Below, in pieces: positions 1,306-29,536 of a stretch of DNA of 64,000 bases (position 1 is its first letter; the number at the start of each line of letters is the position of its first letter). The position numbers and the translations under genes are program-made. Under the pieces are notes generated by a model. It saw only the letters and a program-made list of their open reading frames with translations. It ran no database searches and was not told the DNA's origin. Origin of the DNA: Puia sp. (GTDB lineage: Bacteria > Bacteroidota > Bacteroidia > Chitinophagales > Chitinophagaceae); the NCBI GenBank assembly GCA_035948015.1, contig DASZJO010000114.1, positions 31,780 to 95,779 on the forward strand, in the 5' to 3' direction.

Positions 1306-3220
1306 ACACCTTTTCATCCACCTTAACCGGATACTCCTTCCGAAGCCCCTCCACCCACTGCTCCTCCAGGAACCCCTGATAGTCATTGATGACGAAACCG
1401 CGTGCATCATGATAATTGCGCGGCTCCCGGTTATTGTAGACCGTCAGTACATATGCAAAGCTGACCGTGTTGTCCGCCTTATTACCGGTGAACTCCGTAA
1501 AAGTCTGCGCTACCGGCGTTCCGAACGCAGTGCCCGGGATCTGCGGCAGTTCATACCGGCCCGAGTCCGCCTGAATGGCCGCCCCCATACTATCGGAAGA
1601 CAACCGCCACCCGGCGACCGGACCGGCCGCCAGCCGCGCTTTCAGCGCCTCCGCCGTCCCTGCATTATTGCACGTGAATAACAGCGCGTCTGCGCTGGCA
1701 TTCCACCAGTATTTGCCTTTATGCGCCTCATAATATTTCACCAGCCCCGCACTGTCCGCCGAAGCCTTGTCCCAGATCTTTCGCTGCATGATCTCGAATA
1801 ACAGATTGCCTTCCTTGAACTCATTTAGCTGAAAAGCAAAATCCTTATTGTATTGCTCCAGGTAATTCCGGTAATAGTCCATGGCCGTGCGCTCGATATA
1901 CCGCTGAAAAAGCTCCTTATCCGACAACCCGCTGCCCGCCCTCGTCGGCCGCGTGGCATGCGCAAAATCCAGCCACTCCCTTATCGTATAGGCCCGCTGC
2001 GGATAGGAAAATACGATCGTGGAATTTCTGAGGTTCCCATAAGAGGAATAACGCGGGTTCCGAAAGACGCTGTCCGTAAAGGCCCAGAGATCCGATTCCG
2101 GAATATCCGCCCGCTGGAATCCCGTCTCATGATAGATCCGGTTGAACATCGCCTGCCGGCTGATCTCCACCCGGGGATCGTTGAGCACCTGCTGCCTCAA
2201 GGCAGCCTTCGCCAGGTCGTCGAACTGCGCAGGAGCCGCCTTCCGCGCAAGCCGCTTTATAATATGATAACCGAAACCCGTGGCCACCGGCCGGCTGACC
2301 GCCCCATCCCGGTCGAGCCCGAAAGCCGCCGCTTCAAACGCGGAGTCGTAACGGCCGACACCAAATTCAGGTAGCTCGCCTCCATTCTGATACGAAAGAT
2401 TATCACCGCTGTATGCCCGCGCCAACGCCGCAAAATCACCCCCACGCAAAATCGCCCCGTAAAGGGAGTCCGCCTTCAGCCGCACCTGCTCCCGGACCTC
2501 CGCTGAAGCTCCCGGCGGGACGGACAGGAGTATCTGCGCCACTTTGACCCGGCCCAGCGCCTTCCTTTCTCCTTCATTCCTGAAAATATGGTAGCCGCCT
2601 TTACTCCGGTAGGGCTTCGACCACTGACCCGGCGCCAGCGAATAGGCCAGGTTCTCCAATTCATAAGGGAGCGAAAACACCGTGATATACCCGATCTCCC
2701 CTTTATTCATTTTCACCGCCGGATCATCCGAGAACGCTATTGCCGTCTCCCCGAACTTCTTGCCCTTCTTCAGTTCGTTATACGCCGTCATTGCCTTCTC
2801 ATAAACCCGTAATGTATCCGCAGGCGAAACGTTCTTAGGCAGTGCAAAATAGATATGCGCCAGCCGGATATCCTTCTGGCCTCGCACAAATACCTCTTTC
2901 ACCAGCCGGTCCAAACTTTCCTGGTCCTTCATATAGGCATCGGCCACCTGGGATCTGAAATTTTGCAGCTCCGTCCGCTGCGCAGGCAACGTATCGAGCT
3001 GCGCCGCATAAGCCGCCTTCACCTTCAGTTTATACCGGATGTATAACTCCAGGTAATCCCGGTATGCTTTATCGGTCGGTGCGACCCCATTATTATTTTT
3101 CGTAAATGCCTTTAGGAATTCCTCCTTACTGACAGGTGTGCCATCGACTGTGAAAAGGGTCTGCGCCGTGAGACCGTAAGAAACGAGCAAAAAAAAGAAA
3201 AAAAGAATGACCCCTTTCAT
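1274..3220 (-). CDS. Periplasmic parvulin-type peptidyl-prolyl isomerase (SurA/PpiD-like chaperone)
   Basis: Signal peptide MKGVILFFFFLLVSYGLTAQ. PpiC/parvulin signatures are present (GGYHIFR, GFGYHIIK). The start at M11 (3220) avoids overlap with the upstream gene ending at 3234. Confidence 0.8.
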   Translation of the reverse strand: MKGVILFFFFLLVSYGLTAQTLFTVDGTPVSKEEFLKAFTKNNNGVAPTDKAYRDYLELYIRYKLKVKAAYAAQLDTLPAQRTELQNFRSQVADAYMKDQESLDRLVKEVFVRGQKDIRLAHIYFALPKNVSPADTLRVYEKAMTAYNELKKGKKFGETAIAFSDDPAVKMNKGEIGYITVFSLPYELENLAYSLAPGQWSKPYRSKGGYHIFRNEGERKALGRVKVAQILLSVPPGASAEVREQVRLKADSLYGAILRGGDFAALARAYSGDNLSYQNGGELPEFGVGRYDSAFEAAAFGLDRDGAVSRPVATGFGYHIIKRLARKAAPAQFDDLAKAALRQQVLNDPRVEISRQAMFNRIYHETGFQRADIPESDLWAFTDSVFRNPRYSSYGNLRNSTIVFSYPQRAYTIREWLDFAHATRPTRAGSGLSDKELFQRYIERTAMDYYRNYLEQYNKDFAFQLNEFKEGNLLFEIMQRKIWDKASADSAGLVKYYEAHKGKYWWNASADALLFTCNNAGTAEALKARLAAGPVAGWRLSSDSMGAAIQADSGRYELPQIPGTAFGTPVAQTFTEFTGNKADNTVSFAYVLTVYNNREPRNYHDARGFVINDYQGFLEEQWVEGLRKEYPVKVDEKVFKTLPSPPLR

Positions 3221-26092: not shown

Positions 26093-26683
26093 TTACTTTT
26101 TCAACCCCTCGATCAGGAATTTAACCATATTCGTCTCCAGCGCCTCCGCACTGGTAGTCTTCCTGGACCGCTGCCAGGAATCGATGCCGCTGACCGCGGA
26201 CAGGATAACCAGCACCGCGGTATAAGGCTCAATAGCCTTCAACTCCCCCTTGCTGATACCGTCCTCTATAAGATCACCCAGCCTTTTACGGTAGTTCCGC
26301 CGCTGGTTCAGGAAGTTGGAAAGATAAGGCTCCGGCAAATGCCGCCATTCATGATCGGCAATATAGACATATTCATACTGGTCCAGCATCATTCGGATAT
26401 GCAGCCGGATAATCGTCTCCATTTTCTTCAGGGTCGGATGATGGCTTGCCTCGACGACCTCCAGGTTGCTCATAAACTCATTAGCTATCTTGAAACAGAT
26501 CGCCTGCAGGATCTCTGCCTTGGACTGGATATGATTGTATAAACTCGCAGCTTCCACTCCGACATGCTCGGCAAGATCACGCATACTGGCGGCACCGAAA
26601 CCCTTCTCCCGGAAAAGCTTCGACGCCTTCTCGATGATCACATCTTTTTTGGTGCTGTTCTTCTTATTTACAATTTTAGCCAT
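26093..26683 (-). CDS. TetR/AcrR family transcriptional regulator (candidate PaaR-like repressor)
   Basis: N-terminal HTH IIEKASKLFREKGFGAASMRDLAEHVGVEAASLYNHI. The ATG at 26683 (MAKIVNKK) is preferred over the track start at 26869. Co-oriented with, and 27 nt upstream of, paaE. Confidence 0.85.
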   Translation of the reverse strand: MAKIVNKKNSTKKDVIIEKASKLFREKGFGAASMRDLAEHVGVEAASLYNHIQSKAEILQAICFKIANEFMSNLEVVEASHHPTLKKMETIIRLHIRMMLDQYEYVYIADHEWRHLPEPYLSNFLNQRRNYRKRLGDLIEDGISKGELKAIEPYTAVLVILSAVSGIDSWQRSRKTTSAEALETNMVKFLIEGLKK

Positions 26684-26712
26684 AGAACAAACGACCGTCA
26701 GGGGCAAACCGC

Positions 26713-26730
26713 CACTAACGAGTGTTAGTG
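26713..26730. promoter_or_regulatory. Inverted repeat CACTAAC-gagt-GTTAGTG between the divergent TetR and PfkB-kinase genes (candidate TetR operator)
   Basis: 7-bp arms with a 4-nt spacer. Shares CTAAC-N4-GTTAG with the paaA upstream palindrome. Lies 30-47 nt upstream of the TetR ATG. Confidence 0.55.
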
Positions 26731-26778
26731 CGCAAGTTACGTTAAAAATATGTAGGTTGCAGCCCAAAAACCAACAGC

Positions 26779-27702
26779 ATGTCATTAACCGTCGTCGGAA
26801 CCATGGCCTATGACGCCATCGAGACGCCTTTCGGAAAAACGGACTGGATCGTGGGTGGCGCGGCAACATATGTAGCTTACGCCGCCAGCAATTTTGTCAA
26901 TCCCATCAACCAGGTCTCCATTGTCGGCTACGATTTTGAAAAAGCTGAGATGGATGAGCTGGAACGACGTGGTGTCAGCCTCGAAGGTGTGGAACGGAAA
27001 AAAGATAAGAAGTCCTTCTTCTGGAAAGGAAGATATCACCTCGATATGAATACCCGCGATACGCTGGTCACCGACCTGAACGTGCTGACAGACTTCAACC
27101 CCGTTATTCCCGAAAGCTACCAGGGCAGCGAATTCCTGATGCTCGGCAACGTCCTGCCCAGCCTGCAGATGAGCGTCGTCCAACAGATGCGCAAGCGCCC
27201 CAAACTGATCGCAATGGACACCATGAATTTCTGGATGGATAACGCCCTCGACGACCTGAAGAAACTACTGACGATGGTCGACGTCCTGATGGTCAACGAC
27301 AGCGAAGCCCGCCAGCTCAGCGGCCAGTTCTCCCTCGTAAAAGCTGCCCGGGCGATATTCGGGATGGGCCCCCGTTATGTGATTATCAAGAAAGGCGAGC
27401 ATGGCGCCCTGTTGTTCCATGAGGACAAAGTCTTTGTGGCGCCCGCCCTGCCGCTGGAAGATGTTTTTGATCCGACAGGCGCGGGCGATACCTTTGCCGG
27501 CGGCTTTATGGGCTATCTCGCAAAAACAAAAGATATCTCCTTCGAAAATATGAAGACCGCGATCATCGTCGGATCGGCCATGGCCTCCTTCTGCGTGGAG
27601 AAGTTCGGCCCCACCCGGCTTAAGGAGATCACCCGTTCCGACATCGATACCCGGATCCGGCAATTCGTCGACCTGGTAAATTTTGATATTAAGTTGATCT
27701 AA
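26779..27702 (+). CDS. PfkB/ribokinase-family carbohydrate or nucleoside kinase
   Basis: C-terminal PfkB signature DPTGAGDTFAGGFMGYLA; N-terminal VVGTMAYDAIETPFG. Confidence 0.85.
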   Translation: MSLTVVGTMAYDAIETPFGKTDWIVGGAATYVAYAASNFVNPINQVSIVGYDFEKAEMDELERRGVSLEGVERKKDKKSFFWKGRYHLDMNTRDTLVTDLNVLTDFNPVIPESYQGSEFLMLGNVLPSLQMSVVQQMRKRPKLIAMDTMNFWMDNALDDLKKLLTMVDVLMVNDSEARQLSGQFSLVKAARAIFGMGPRYVIIKKGEHGALLFHEDKVFVAPALPLEDVFDPTGAGDTFAGGFMGYLAKTKDISFENMKTAIIVGSAMASFCVEKFGPTRLKEITRSDIDTRIRQFVDLVNFDIKLI

Positions 27703-27727
27703 AATTGTTTTATTAGATCTTCCTGTT

Positions 27728-27861
27728 TATATTTGCCGCGAAATGAAAATGGTAAAGTCTACAAAGCAGATTAAGAAGTGCTTCCCCGAGCGGGAAAGGG
27801 TCTGATCGTTTTGTAACAAAATATGTCAGGAGCCTTCCCGCAGGGAAGGCTCTTTTTTTTT
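27728..27861 (+). promoter_or_regulatory. Candidate asd leader: -7 box, 20-codon leader ORF (27743-27805, MKMVKSTKQIKKCFPERERV) and a 4-segment attenuator
   Basis: -7 box TATATTTG at 27728-27735. The uORF is rich in Lys/Met/Thr/Ile. Segments: seg1 CTTCCC 27781-27786, seg2 GGGAAAGGGTC 27792-27802, seg3 GAGCCTTCCC 27830-27839, seg4 GGGAAGGCTC 27843-27852. Confidence 0.5.
27830..27861 (+). terminator. Perfect rho-independent terminator 15 nt upstream of the asd start codon
   Basis: GAGCCTTCCC-gca-GGGAAGGCTC (10-bp perfect stem) followed by nine T residues. Confidence 0.9.
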
Positions 27862-27876
27862 AATAAATCCGAAAAA

Positions 27877-28872
27877 ATGAAAGTTGCAGTCGTCGGCGCC
27901 ACCGGCCTGGTAGGCACCAAAATGTTACAAGTTCTGGCAGAAAGGAATTTCCCCGTTACCGAATTGATCCCGGTGGCCTCTGAAAAGTCCATTGGGAAAG
28001 AAGTCGAGTTCAAAGGCAAAAAATACAAGGTAGTCAGCGCAACCGACGCCATCGCAGCGAAGCCGGCCGTTGCCCTCTTCTCCGCGGGCGGCAGCACCTC
28101 CCTGGAATGGGCCCCCAAATTCGCCGCGGCGGGCATCACCGTCATCGACAACTCCTCTGCCTGGCGGATGGACCCGGCTAAGAAACTGGTCGTCCCCGAA
28201 CTCAATGCCGACGTTCTCACAAAAGAAGATAAGATCATCGCCAACCCCAATTGCTCCACCATCCAGATGGTCGTCGCGCTGAACCCCCTGCACAAGAAGT
28301 ATAAGGTCAGGCGGATCGTGGTTTCCACCTACCAGAGCGTCACCGGCACCGGGGTCAAGGCCGTGGCCCAACTGCAAAACGAGCGGAAGGGCGTAAAGGG
28401 CGACATGGCCTACAAATACCCTATCGACCTCAACGCCATCCCCCAGATTGACGTGTTCCTTGATAACGGTTATACGAAAGAAGAGATGAAGATGGTAAAT
28501 GAGACAAGAAAGATCATGCGCGACAACGACATCCGGGTAACGGCAACCACCGTCCGCATTCCGGTGATGGGCGGTCATAGCGAAGCCGTTAACGTCGAAT
28601 TCGAGAAGGATTTCGACCTTGAAGAGGTGCGCACCCTCCTGGGCAAAGCGCCCGGGATCATCGTCGTCGACGACCCGGCTACCCAGCAATACCCGATGCC
28701 GCGGGACTCGCACGAAAAGGATGAGGTATTCGTAGGCAGGTTACGCCGCGACGAATCCCAACCAAATACCCTGAACATGTGGGTAGTAAGCGATAACCTG
28801 CGTAAGGGCGCCGCAACAAACGCCGTCCAGATCGCGGAGTACCTGCTTGAAAAGGGTTTGTTGAAGCCATAG
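27877..28872 (+). CDS. asd: Aspartate-semialdehyde dehydrogenase
   Basis: MKVAVVGATGLVG Rossmann start and active-site NPNCSTIQ. Full-length Asd; the track ORF starts earlier at 27823, inside the terminator. Confidence 0.95.
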   Translation: MKVAVVGATGLVGTKMLQVLAERNFPVTELIPVASEKSIGKEVEFKGKKYKVVSATDAIAAKPAVALFSAGGSTSLEWAPKFAAAGITVIDNSSAWRMDPAKKLVVPELNADVLTKEDKIIANPNCSTIQMVVALNPLHKKYKVRRIVVSTYQSVTGTGVKAVAQLQNERKGVKGDMAYKYPIDLNAIPQIDVFLDNGYTKEEMKMVNETRKIMRDNDIRVTATTVRIPVMGGHSEAVNVEFEKDFDLEEVRTLLGKAPGIIVVDDPATQQYPMPRDSHEKDEVFVGRLRRDESQPNTLNMWVVSDNLRKGAATNAVQIAEYLLEKGLLKP

Positions 28873-28873
28873 T

Positions 28874-29536
28874 CTATTCGATCGCCCGATTGAGGAAATA
28901 GACAAACCCCTTCATCGATTCAAAGGTATTTAACACCTCCTTCAGGAGGGACCGGGATGCCATCAACTCATCGGTAAGAGAACGCGTGACTACGAAACTC
29001 TTTAATTTCAGGAACTCGATGGCTGGATTTTCCGCATCATAGCCCTTGGGCGGCCTGGAAAGGATCTCACCCCGATCCAGGCCCTCAGGGAAGTGCTTTT
29101 TAAAGCGCCGGTCCCCAAGTATCTTCGACCATTCGGGAAAGTTATAGTCAATCTCCTGCCGCACCTTGTTCAACTCCGCAGGCTTCGGCATCCACAACCC
29201 GCCACCCGCCATGCTTTGACCGGGCTGCATATGAATATAATAACCCGCCGTCGGGGCTTTCTTGCCGCCTTTGTTGAGAAAGGCGCCCATATGGGTCTTA
29301 TAAGGGGTTTTGTCGCTGGAGAAGCGAACATCGCGATAAATCCGGTAAGTACAATCCTTTGCCTCCAAAGATTTGATGTCGGGGTCAATCTTTCCCAAAC
29401 CTTCGATCAACTGTGCTACGAAAAGTTCGGCATCTTCTTTAGCATCCAGGTAAACAGATTTGATCTTCTCGAACCAGGGCTTGTTGTTATTCTTTTTGAG
29501 GTCTTTTAGGAATTTGAGAGTAGAAGTTTTGAGCAT
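28874..29536 (-). CDS. DUF2461 (TIGR02453) family protein
   Basis: FLKDLKKNNNKPWFE and YRIYRDVRFSSDKTPYKTHMGAF are typical of the family. Confidence 0.8.
   Translation of the reverse strand: MLKTSTLKFLKDLKKNNNKPWFEKIKSVYLDAKEDAELFVAQLIEGLGKIDPDIKSLEAKDCTYRIYRDVRFSSDKTPYKTHMGAFLNKGGKKAPTAGYYIHMQPGQSMAGGGLWMPKPAELNKVRQEIDYNFPEWSKILGDRRFKKHFPEGLDRGEILSRPPKGYDAENPAIEFLKLKSFVVTRSLTDELMASRSLLKEVLNTFESMKGFVYFLNRAIE

Follow-up and report, generated by a model that had tools for sequence, protein, structure and literature searches.

The 64,000-nt stretch of Puia sp. contig DASZJO010000114.1 analyzed here (the window, always meant at its full length) carries, directly upstream of asd, the gene for aspartate-semialdehyde dehydrogenase, what is very probably a classical ribosome-mediated (leader-peptide) transcription attenuator controlling that gene. 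Here, a short upstream open reading frame (uORF) rich in lysine codons is followed by an RNA segment with two mutually exclusive folds, one of which includes an intrinsic terminator. In relatives, the promoter motif, the frame of the uORF, its codon bias, the terminator, both folds, and the linkage to asd or dapA are conserved. A preliminary description, made from the letters of the window, had already proposed such an attenuator. All of the sequence features listed in it were found in their places, and its outline is supported by our comparative tests, but it had missed an outer helix of the RNA, the near-leaderless position predicted for the uORF, and the members of the family that precede dapA. 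The features needed for the argument are given below in window coordinates.

27704-27707, plus strand: candidate -33 promoter element, ATTG (family consensus TTTG or TTTTGG), by motif match
27728-27735, plus strand: -7 box TATATTTG (Bacteroidota sigma-A consensus TAnnTTTG), by sequence and conserved spacing
27743-27805, plus strand: leader peptide uORF MKMVKSTKQIKKCFPERERV, 20 codons with the stop TGA at 27803-27805, by the list of open reading frames and homologous uORFs
27746-27778, plus strand: putative regulatory codons 2-12 (K M V K S T K Q I K K), by composition in each frame and the ribosome-mask model
27757-27776, plus strand: 5' strand of the outer helix of the 5' domain (the anti-antiterminator), inside the uORF, by folds of nt 1-80 and 1-86
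27781-27787, plus strand: segment 1 (seg1) CTTCCCC, 5' strand of the inner hairpin, 6 pairs with 27792-27798
27790-27804, plus strand: segment 2 (seg2) GCGGGAAAGGGTCTG, the switch strand, partner of either seg1 or the terminator 5' arm, by duplex test and covariation
27801-27817, plus strand: 3' strand of the outer helix TCTGATCGTTTTGTAAC, by folds of the window
27828-27854, plus strand: intrinsic terminator hairpin (seg3 27828-27839, loop GCA, seg4 27843-27854), -20.1 kcal/mol
27853-27861, plus strand: T9 run of the terminator
27877-28872, plus strand: asd (NF011456, 450 bits, with a cut-off of 223 bits for the assignment; TIGR01296, 435 bits, also above its cut-off)

In the mechanism that we propose, a Bacteroidota -33/-7 promoter would direct initiation a few nucleotides ahead of the AUG that opens the 20-codon leader reading frame. 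By default, the nascent RNA would form the 5' domain, in which codons 6-12 pair downstream and enclose the seg1:seg2 hairpin; with seg2 sequestered in this way, the GC-rich hairpin and its U9 tract would form 15 nt before asd and end transcription. A ribosome that quickly reaches the stop codon would cover seg2 and likewise lead to termination. When charged tRNA is scarce, a ribosome would stall on the Lys, Thr, Met, or Ile codons between positions 2 and 12, chiefly on the Lys-Lys codons 11-12, where it would melt the 5' domain and cover seg1. The freed seg2 could then pair with the emerging 5' arm of the terminator, and RNA polymerase would enter asd. The transcription start, the translation of the uORF, the stalling, and the amino acids sensed are all steps that we infer from comparison of sequences.

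Occurrence of the element and its linkage to asd and dapA

A protein-anchored scan with one genome per species gave 80 asd loci, and a homologous element was found upstream of asd in 24 of these, all of Chitinophagales type; with the window added, they form a genome set of 25 elements. The carriers include Flavihumibacter, Limnovirga, Terrimonas, Pseudobacter, Parafilimonas, Sediminibacterium, Flavisolibacter, and many metagenome-assembled genomes (MAGs), and the closest Asd to that of the window among the 80 loci (87% identical) comes from a Flavihumibacter MAG. Within the same 80 loci, the element is absent before asd in Sphingobacteriales, Flavobacteriales, Cytophagales, Saprospiraceae, and some Chitinophagales, and many of the element-free loci (e.g., L025, L031, L043, and L058) have a TAnnTTTG-like box near the asd ATG. 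A covariance model built from five close relatives (R1) matches the window at 27743-27861 (37.7 bits, E ~1e-5) and finds the elements of 23 of the 24 relatives at E < 1e-4, with the remaining one (L035) at E = 0.09. With this model, there is no second copy in the 64-kb window, nor is there one elsewhere in the 80 asd loci.

Further members came from a metagenome scan with a DNA pattern confined to the leader (AAACATACAA-N9-ARAAAC-N20-45-TGTATG), which gave at least 120 loci; the 92 unique elements among them bring the family to 117. In 99 of the 120 metagenome loci listed, asd lies 110-470 nt downstream on the same strand, and in 5 others listed the downstream gene is dapA, which encodes 4-hydroxy-tetrahydrodipicolinate synthase (TIGR00674, 307 bits). 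The dapA-linked elements, situated ~70-110 nt upstream of that gene, score 39-59 bits with R1 and are the following.

L092, 2476-2596: element upstream of dapA
L164, 1934-2054: element upstream of dapA
L105, 2965-3085: element upstream of dapA
L129, 2192-2316: element upstream of dapA
L160, 922-1044 (minus strand of the stored locus): element upstream of dapA

Seven loci that match the pattern only (L102, L124, L138, L142, L175, L187, and L199) received no score from R1 and were rejected as chance matches, and the remaining metagenome loci hold too little downstream DNA to be judged. Subtracting these seven from 113 candidates leaves, among the matches listed, 106 real elements with enough downstream DNA, and asd or dapA is immediately downstream on the same strand in 104 of them. 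On the other side, the neighbor is variable, a PfkB-like kinase being found upstream in only 33 of 101 element loci, and the element therefore belongs to asd or dapA and not to the preceding gene.

As a separate observation, a PfkB-like kinase gene is followed by asd at a distance of ~30 nt, without the leader element, in two loci from Chitinophagales MAGs (L048 and L059, ~2960-3000). The attenuator has therefore been gained or lost within a conserved gene pair.

Coding signature of the leader reading frame

Among the first 12 residues of the window's uORF, the preliminary description had counted five Lys, two Met, one Thr, and one Ile, and this count is correct. A homologous uORF of 14-22 codons is found in all 25 elements of the genome set and in 103 metagenome elements among the matches listed, with the consensus M-x-x-(M)-K-H-T-K-(R/Q)-(T/I)-K-K, after which the peptide either ends two codons later or continues for seven or eight variable codons. 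The C-terminus and the length (14-22 residues) vary across the family, and the Lys-Lys pair that closes the consensus (codons 11-12, at 27773-27778 in the window) is near-invariant. Length differences on the 5' side of the KHT anchor are all multiples of three (3, 12, or 15 nt). Moreover, divergent leaders such as MNTTTSIKTTTKHIPATEGY and MINFTNTTIKTIKGFPRGKA keep the same richness in these amino acids.

The three reading frames differ sharply over codons 2-13 of the genome set, where frames 0, 1, and 2 hold 21, 0, and 1 ATG codons and 0, 38, and 17 stop codons, and where Lys, Thr, Met, and Ile together make up 69%, 21%, and 35% of codons, respectively. A similar picture is given by the metagenome elements, the 5' ends of which lie outside the search pattern. 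All 92 unique elements place an in-frame ATG ahead of the KHT anchor, at exactly 12 nt in 81 and at exactly 15 nt in 11 of them, and the counts of ATGs within 15 nt upstream of this anchor are 161, 2, and 0 for the three frames. At the three codons that precede the anchor, Met is found 69 times, Lys 47, Ile 43, Thr 41, Asn 30, and Leu 15, and for the codons free of the search pattern, the share of Lys, Thr, Met, and Ile is 72% in frame versus 22% and 21% in the other two frames. At the variable residue of the KR-x-KK motif, we found Thr in 54 elements, Ile in 27, Asn in 5, Ser in 4, and Val in 2. Judged by this signature, the uORF is under coding-type selection, and codons 2-12 would be the sensor.

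Two mutually exclusive RNA folds

In the preliminary description, TTCCC (27782-27786) was paired with part of GGGAAAGGGTC (27792-27802), which is adjoined by the TGA at 27803-27805. Both segments are in place and the seg1:seg2 hairpin does form, but the structured element is larger than had been claimed, as 27757-27776 (codons 6-12) makes 17 pairs with 27801-27817 in an outer helix that had gone unnoticed. Since this outer helix includes codons 6-12, the regulatory codons are themselves part of segment 1. The terminator is as described, with a 12-pair stem (7 G-C), the T9 run, and 15 nt to the asd ATG at 27877. When the window transcript is lengthened stepwise, the lowest-energy fold changes from the 5' domain (nt 1-86, -18.6 kcal/mol) to the antiterminator (nt 1-101, 27790-27813 with 27817-27841, -27.2 kcal/mol), and then to the 5' domain plus terminator (nt 1-112, -38.9 kcal/mol). 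In the antiterminator (ON) state, the GTTTTG of the 3' strand of the outer helix pairs locally with 27817-27822 as a small hairpin. For the window by itself, the fold statistics are modest (z-score -2.8, with 3 of 200 shuffles folding equally well), and it is because the reading frame, the codon bias, and the covarying helices are shared by the copies in 24 species-representative genomes and at least ~110 metagenome contigs that the element can be called more than chance.

For nearly all relatives, the full-length lowest-energy fold contains the outer helix, the enclosed seg1:seg2 hairpin, and a separate terminator (the OFF state), and a T-rich tail follows the terminator in every one. Here, the outer helix is made by the conserved CAUACAAAACG (codons His-Thr-Lys-Arg) and the downstream CGUUUUGUAUG. 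When seg4 is omitted from the fold, seg2 takes the 5' arm of the terminator as its partner instead, around a small nested hairpin (the ON state). The OFF fold was assessed on an alignment of 24 sequences fitted by covariance model (A5), where pairing extends to 91.8% of cells and both partners vary in 20 of 29 pairs, with a covariation score of 0.479 as against 0.228 in shuffles (0 of 500 reach it, though shuffle statistics of this kind overstate significance, as discussed further below) and 0.06-0.15 with slid partners. By part, helices 1-2 (outer) are 87-90% paired with both-side changes in 8 of 12 pairs, helix 4 (inner hairpin) is 93.5% paired with 3 of 4 pairs compensatory, the 5' domain of outer helix and inner hairpin taken together is 80-94% paired per helix with both-side changes in 12 of 20 pairs, and the terminator across the family is 100% paired with both-side changes in 8 of 9 pairs. 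For the ON fold, a second covariance model with that structure (R2) was used to make alignment A6, and this gave 88.7% of cells paired, both-side changes in 18 of 20 pairs, and a covariation score of 0.449 versus 0.188 in shuffles and at most 0.10 in slid controls; the nested hairpin is 93.8% paired with 5 of 6 pairs compensatory. An ON pairing count on A5 was dropped, as the terminator columns there are register-shifted between subgroups (GGCCUUCC versus GCCUUCCC). We also note that plain MAFFT plus RNAalifold recovers the terminator only, and that the 5' domain needs folding of each sequence and alignment by covariance model.

The switch pairing can also be seen without any alignment. For the terminator 5' arm, a duplex test picks seg2 as the best partner in each of the 117 elements, at RNA nt 37-64 (with starts at 43-52 except in L003, and at nt 49-62 in the window). 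In the genome set, the seg2:seg3 duplex has an energy of -10 to -21 kcal/mol in 24 of 25 elements (-5.2 in L022), and in the metagenome elements it ranges from -6.5 to -18.9 kcal/mol with a median of -12.6; z-scores fall below -2 in 23 of 25 and 96% of elements, respectively, while the window itself is modest in this regard (-13.8 kcal/mol, z = -1.9). The two strands change together, as with GGGGCU and GGCCCC in L018, CGGGAG and CUCCCG in L003, GGAGGGUUUGC and GCAGGCCCUCC in L013, and GGAAAGGC and GCCUUUCU in L019, and their flanks covary as well (GAGG with a bulged CUC, and UAGAG with CUUCUA). Both the slid controls and this duplex test agree with the covariation scores. Mutually exclusive 2:3 and 3:4 pairings, as were proposed for the window, are thus conserved and covarying in relatives (0.449 versus 0.188 for ON and 0.479 versus 0.228 for OFF). 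The preliminary description had also advised aligning the upstream regions of asd, and across the relatives that carry the element the uORF and its Lys codons are conserved and the stems show compensatory changes.

Modeled position of the ribosome and choice of fold

To model the effect of a ribosome on the 117 elements, we masked -15 to +12 nt around the first nucleotide of the A-site codon and folded the transcript up to the terminator loop. With the A site at codons 2-12, the antiterminator is part of the lowest-energy fold in 94-100% of elements, and this proportion falls to 80% at codon 13, 28% at codon 14, at most 23% at later codons, and 4% at the stop codon. In this model, the elements switch just past the near-invariant Lys-Lys pair. 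With the window, a strong 2:3 antiterminator (-18 to -24 kcal/mol) persists for ribosome positions through codon 13, and none is left once the A site has reached codon 16. An apparent antiterminator in the window with the ribosome at the stop codon was discarded, being a weak long-range pairing (-8.4 kcal/mol) and not seg2:seg3. The stop codon itself ends at nt 45, next to the start of seg2 (~nt 46), in 67 of the 92 metagenome elements and lies at the 3' edge of seg2 in the others and in the window. This agrees with the earlier proposal that a terminating ribosome would mask seg2.

Predicted promoter and transcription start, and the spacer before asd

As had been described, a consensus -7 box, TATATTTG, is present at 27728-27735. 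The -33 candidate lies 20 nt upstream of it, and a TTTG-type motif recurs at this distance in most members of the genome set. For 20 of its 25 members, the uORF ATG follows 5-9 nt after the end of a TAnnTT[TC]G-like box, and in 81 of the 92 unique metagenome elements the KHT anchor lies 18-25 nt downstream of the end of a -7-like box. The sigma-A box of Flavobacterium psychrophilum spans -12 to -5 (PMC9723704), and on this account the start of transcription is predicted near 27740-27741. By promoter spacing, the uORF would then begin ~2-3 nt from the transcript end and be effectively leaderless.

The spacer between the terminator and the asd ATG is 15 nt long in the window and 23-208 nt (median 58) in relatives, and a TAnnTTTG motif occurs within it in only 2 of 85 unique elements (83 of 85 are without). 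With a spacer so short in the window and so rarely a promoter motif in those of relatives, transcription of asd would pass through the terminator, just as the preliminary description had argued for the window from the shortness of this gap.

Some spacers hold further features. In many relatives, among them L002, L004 (~2955-3000), L005, L013, L016, and L018, a second small GC-rich hairpin stands between the terminator and asd and is followed by a G-rich tract (GGAGGG or GGGGGG) within ~10-15 nt of the asd start, as for example in CTTCCGCCTTGCGGAAG-ATGGGGGG-ACAAACAATG; the window is without this hairpin. The tract could be a Shine-Dalgarno-like or translational element, which would be unusual for Bacteroidota. 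In others (L008 2833-3000, L014 241-380, L017 2886-3000, and L094), there is an extra insert of ~100-200 nt. These inserts contain self-complementary segments, such as GTACAAG...CTTGTAC in L008, and those of L008, L017, and L094 share GCGACGCAA- or GTGACACAA-like motifs. No Rfam match to the inserts was found at E up to 0.01.

Amino acids proposed to be sensed and the dapA-linked leaders

Leaders that precede dapA, for instance MKWIKKHTKRIKKHSIFREG and MQLIKKHTKRVKKHSVYREG, have a higher Lys content and lack internal Met. By comparison with asd-linked leaders, they average 5.3 versus 4.5 Lys, 1.0 versus 2.1 Thr, and 0 versus 0.75 internal Met, with only three unique dapA leaders to draw on. 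As a hint from so small a sample, this suggests a small regulon with codons tuned to the branch. On account of the dapA linkage and the invariant Lys-Lys pair, lysine would be the main signal. Additional Thr, Ile, and Met codons would make the control of asd multivalent, and this fits the position of Asd, which acts upstream of the Lys/diaminopimelate, Thr, Met, and Ile branches. The fuller reading, which we hold to be somewhat probable, is that of a first lysine-led attenuator family, in which charged tRNA-Lys would be gauged at the Lys-Lys pair with multivalent input from Thr, Met, and Ile codons, and in which a leaderless uORF would govern an asd and dapA regulon with branch-tuned codons, taking the role of the L-box in part of the Chitinophagaceae.

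Comparison with known systems

Rfam 15 was searched at E up to 10 in the 600-nt region of the element and at the gathering threshold in the whole window and seven relatives. No family reaches the gathering threshold in the 64-kb window or the seven relatives, and the Lysine riboswitch (RF00168), T-box (RF00230), and asd motif (RF01732) have no match in the 600-nt region at E up to 10. Two sub-threshold matches were rejected. The best leader match in the window, Phe_leader (22.9 bits versus a gathering threshold of 55), is driven by the terminator. In Limnovirga soli (L008 2689-2838), Thr_leader scores 36.8 bits versus 55, but the match is mostly terminator and begins in the promoter; it reflects analogy, not homology.

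The usual lysine-responsive cis-regulator of lysC, dapA, and sometimes asd is the L-box (RF00168), which often works as a terminator/antiterminator switch. It binds lysine directly through a ~180-nt aptamer of five helices and has no reading frame, whereas the element described here would sense charged tRNA by way of the ribosome. The asd RNA motif (RF01732) of Lactobacillales is also a conserved structured RNA upstream of asd, though its structure is unrelated and it has no leader reading frame. A closer counterpart in logic is thrL of Escherichia coli (Rfam Thr_leader, RF00506), likewise a leader-peptide attenuator of an aspartate-family gene. It shares the 1:2 / 2:3 / 3:4 scheme and the intrinsic terminator just before the gene, and it is multivalent too (Thr and Ile codons). 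However, thrL has no sequence or structure homology to this element (the window has no Thr_leader match), and it targets thrABC instead of asd or dapA. Furthermore, Lys codons dominate here in company with Thr, Met, and Ile, the predicted promoter is of Bacteroidota sigma-A type, and the uORF is predicted to be nearly leaderless.

Within the phylum, the Bacteroid-trp leader and the leaders of F. psychrophilum have in common with this element a short reading frame with end-product codons, a structured leader, and a terminator, and the mechanism is on this account predicted to be in use in Bacteroidota. Predicted attenuators in F. psychrophilum concern trp, ilvE, hisG, and aromatic amino acid genes, and neither the text nor the supplements of that study include one for asd, dapA, or lysine (PMC9723704). 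The Bacteroid-trp and F. psychrophilum leaders thus differ from the present family in their codons (Trp, Ile, His, and aromatic) and target genes, and the hisG leader begins ~15 nt before its AUG, compared with the ~2-3 predicted here. Sequences reminiscent of leader peptides have been noted in Bacteroides thetaiotaomicron as well.

In Sinorhizobium meliloti, the translated small reading frame SEP5 contains a cluster of Thr (6) and Lys (3) codons, lies within the 5' untranslated region (UTR) of an aspartate-pathway gene, and has been proposed by its authors as a leader peptide (PMC10117765). It is alphaproteobacterial, precedes aspartate dehydrogenase, is conserved only in Sinorhizobium, is unrelated in sequence to this element, and is not known to have been analyzed for alternative RNA structures. 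A study on mycobacteria describes leaderless polycysteine small reading frames that control downstream operon expression through amino-acid-specific codons (bioRxiv 10.1101/834739). These frames begin at or next to the 5' end of the transcript, as is predicted for the near-leaderless uORF here, but they are actinobacterial and use Cys codons. The mechanism in mycobacteria is reportedly not a classical intrinsic-terminator switch.

The preliminary description was not aware of any attenuator of this sort for asd in Bacteroidota, and we found no prior description in the searched literature or in Rfam 15. More broadly, no leader peptide for asd, dapA, or lysine in Bacteroidota emerged from full-text literature searches, the scope of which did not extend to older subscription-only comparative surveys. 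We therefore regard the element as a new family of a textbook mechanism, and not as a new mechanism.

Alternative explanations

A leader RNA of the riboswitch or T-box type, which would bind a metabolite, protein, or tRNA and use the same switch with the small reading frame being incidental, is unlikely. Such an RNA would be consistent with the reality of the two alternative folds, with the primary-sequence conservation of the core AAACAUACAAAACG and its partner CGUUUUGUAUG in many genera, and with the usual control of lysine genes elsewhere by an L-box riboswitch. It is, however, hard to square with ATGs that number 161, 2, and 0 by frame, with pre-KHT length differences in multiples of three, with variable positions taken by Lys, Thr, Met, or Ile, and with a stop codon set precisely at the edge of seg2. 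Moreover, no Rfam family, the Lysine, T-box, and asd motif ones included, reaches threshold in the window or the relatives, and the 5' domain, which folds as a simple nested hairpin, shows no obvious pocket for a ligand. Very unlikely, too, is a uORF-dependent attenuator that senses general translation capacity or speed, whether as ribosome availability or as slow poly-basic decoding. The conserved peptide is indeed strongly basic (K, H, K, R, K, K), and near-invariance among its Lys codons is limited to two consecutive ones, with His and Arg codons conserved as well. However, pairing in the outer helix, where the His and Arg codons lie, can account for the conservation of these codons, the residues at variable positions are specifically Thr, Ile, Met, Lys, and Asn, and the only target genes seen in the loci scanned are asd and dapA; in addition, dapA leaders (three unique ones only) have more Lys and fewer Thr and internal Met.

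The unit might also be viewed as an independent small gene, either a ~115-nt trans-acting small RNA (sRNA) or a basic micropeptide, with asd expressed by constitutive readthrough or from an unrecognized promoter. It does have its own predicted promoter and a strong terminator, its N-terminal K-H-T-K-R-x-K-K motif is conserved, and attenuator-derived sRNAs and trans-acting leader peptides have been reported in S. meliloti. Nonetheless, we consider this highly improbable: asd or dapA is directly downstream in 104 of the 106 judged elements listed while upstream neighbors vary, the C-terminus and length of the peptide (14-22 residues) are not conserved, and a free-standing sRNA would have no use for a conserved antiterminator that overlaps the terminator. 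A trans function in addition to attenuation could exist and would be compatible with it. Least credible of all, and extremely improbable, is that the hairpin and T-run are merely the terminator of the PfkB-like kinase gene and that the uORF and pairings arose by chance in an AT-rich spacer. For the window alone, there is some sense in this, given that the terminator lies 126 nt past the kinase stop at 27702 with no other terminator between the two genes and that the window-only fold statistics are modest. The comparative data contradict it, as the whole unit, promoter motif and uORF included, is conserved and covarying, a kinase is upstream in only 33 of 101 element loci, and kinase and asd adjoin without the element in L048 and L059. 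The terminator may end kinase transcripts as well, which leaves the rest unexplained.

Several points weigh against leader-peptide attenuation as we have drawn it. Without a masking ribosome, the antiterminator is thermodynamically favored before seg4 emerges in 77% of elements, and the OFF default therefore depends on folding kinetics. Each alignment had been fitted to the very structure that it served to test, and the sequences share a phylogeny, such that the shuffle statistics overstate significance. In the window, the full-length lowest-energy fold is a single long hairpin (-40.0 versus -38.9 kcal/mol), the outer helix is weaker than that of the family, and the uORF is atypical in having KSTKQ where the family has KHTKR. 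The core AAACAUACAAAACG is more conserved in primary sequence than plain pairing requires, and another ligand or protein could still act upon it. As for the codons, A is the first letter in every one for Lys, Thr, Met, Ile, and Asn, and part of the bias could for this reason come from an A-periodic, unstructured 5' end, and the in-frame AUGs could be back-up start codons instead of Met sensors. Lastly, short or absent 5' UTRs belong to a minority, amounting to 3.7% of 5' UTRs under 10 nt in B. thetaiotaomicron and to 5.5% leaderless mRNAs in F. psychrophilum (PMC9723704).

Genomic neighborhood

By the map of open reading frames, asd is monocistronic, with the next gene on the opposite strand. 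The kinase reading frame on its 5' side ends 174 nt before the asd start. No tRNA genes are found in the whole 64-kb window. The neighboring genes are as follows.

26093-26869, minus strand: mechanically listed reading frame of 258 residues, overlapping the start of the kinase gene by ~90 nt
26779-27702, plus strand: PfkB-family sugar kinase gene, 5' neighbor of asd, with weak family matches
28874-29536, minus strand: gene for a TIGR02453-family protein, 3' neighbor of asd

By our own reading of its sequence, the C-terminal two thirds of the 258-residue frame (MAKIVNKKNSTKKDVIIEKASKLFREKGF...) resembles a regulator of the TetR/AcrR type. Its true start is probably an internal ATG, which would make the gene divergent from the kinase-asd region.

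Biological significance

What is known in detail of ribosome-mediated attenuation comes almost wholly from Proteobacteria and a few Gram-positives, and for genes of the lysine pathway, control is generally ascribed to the L-box riboswitch or to proteins. The covariance models could be used to annotate the element, which is currently unannotated in Chitinophagaceae genomes and metagenomes, and the predicted terminated RNA of ~115 nt could be taken for an sRNA in transcriptomes. The family would also offer a natural test case for how translation starts on nearly leaderless Bacteroidota transcripts that are free of a Shine-Dalgarno sequence. If our reading is true, lysine would be a new amino acid specificity in the repertoire of attenuators, and the element would illustrate cleanly how the aspartate-semialdehyde branch point can come under multivalent control. 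Its codon mix would then be tuned to that branch point, with more Thr and Met before asd and almost only Lys before dapA, and in part of the Chitinophagaceae it would fill the role that the L-box riboswitch has for lysine genes.

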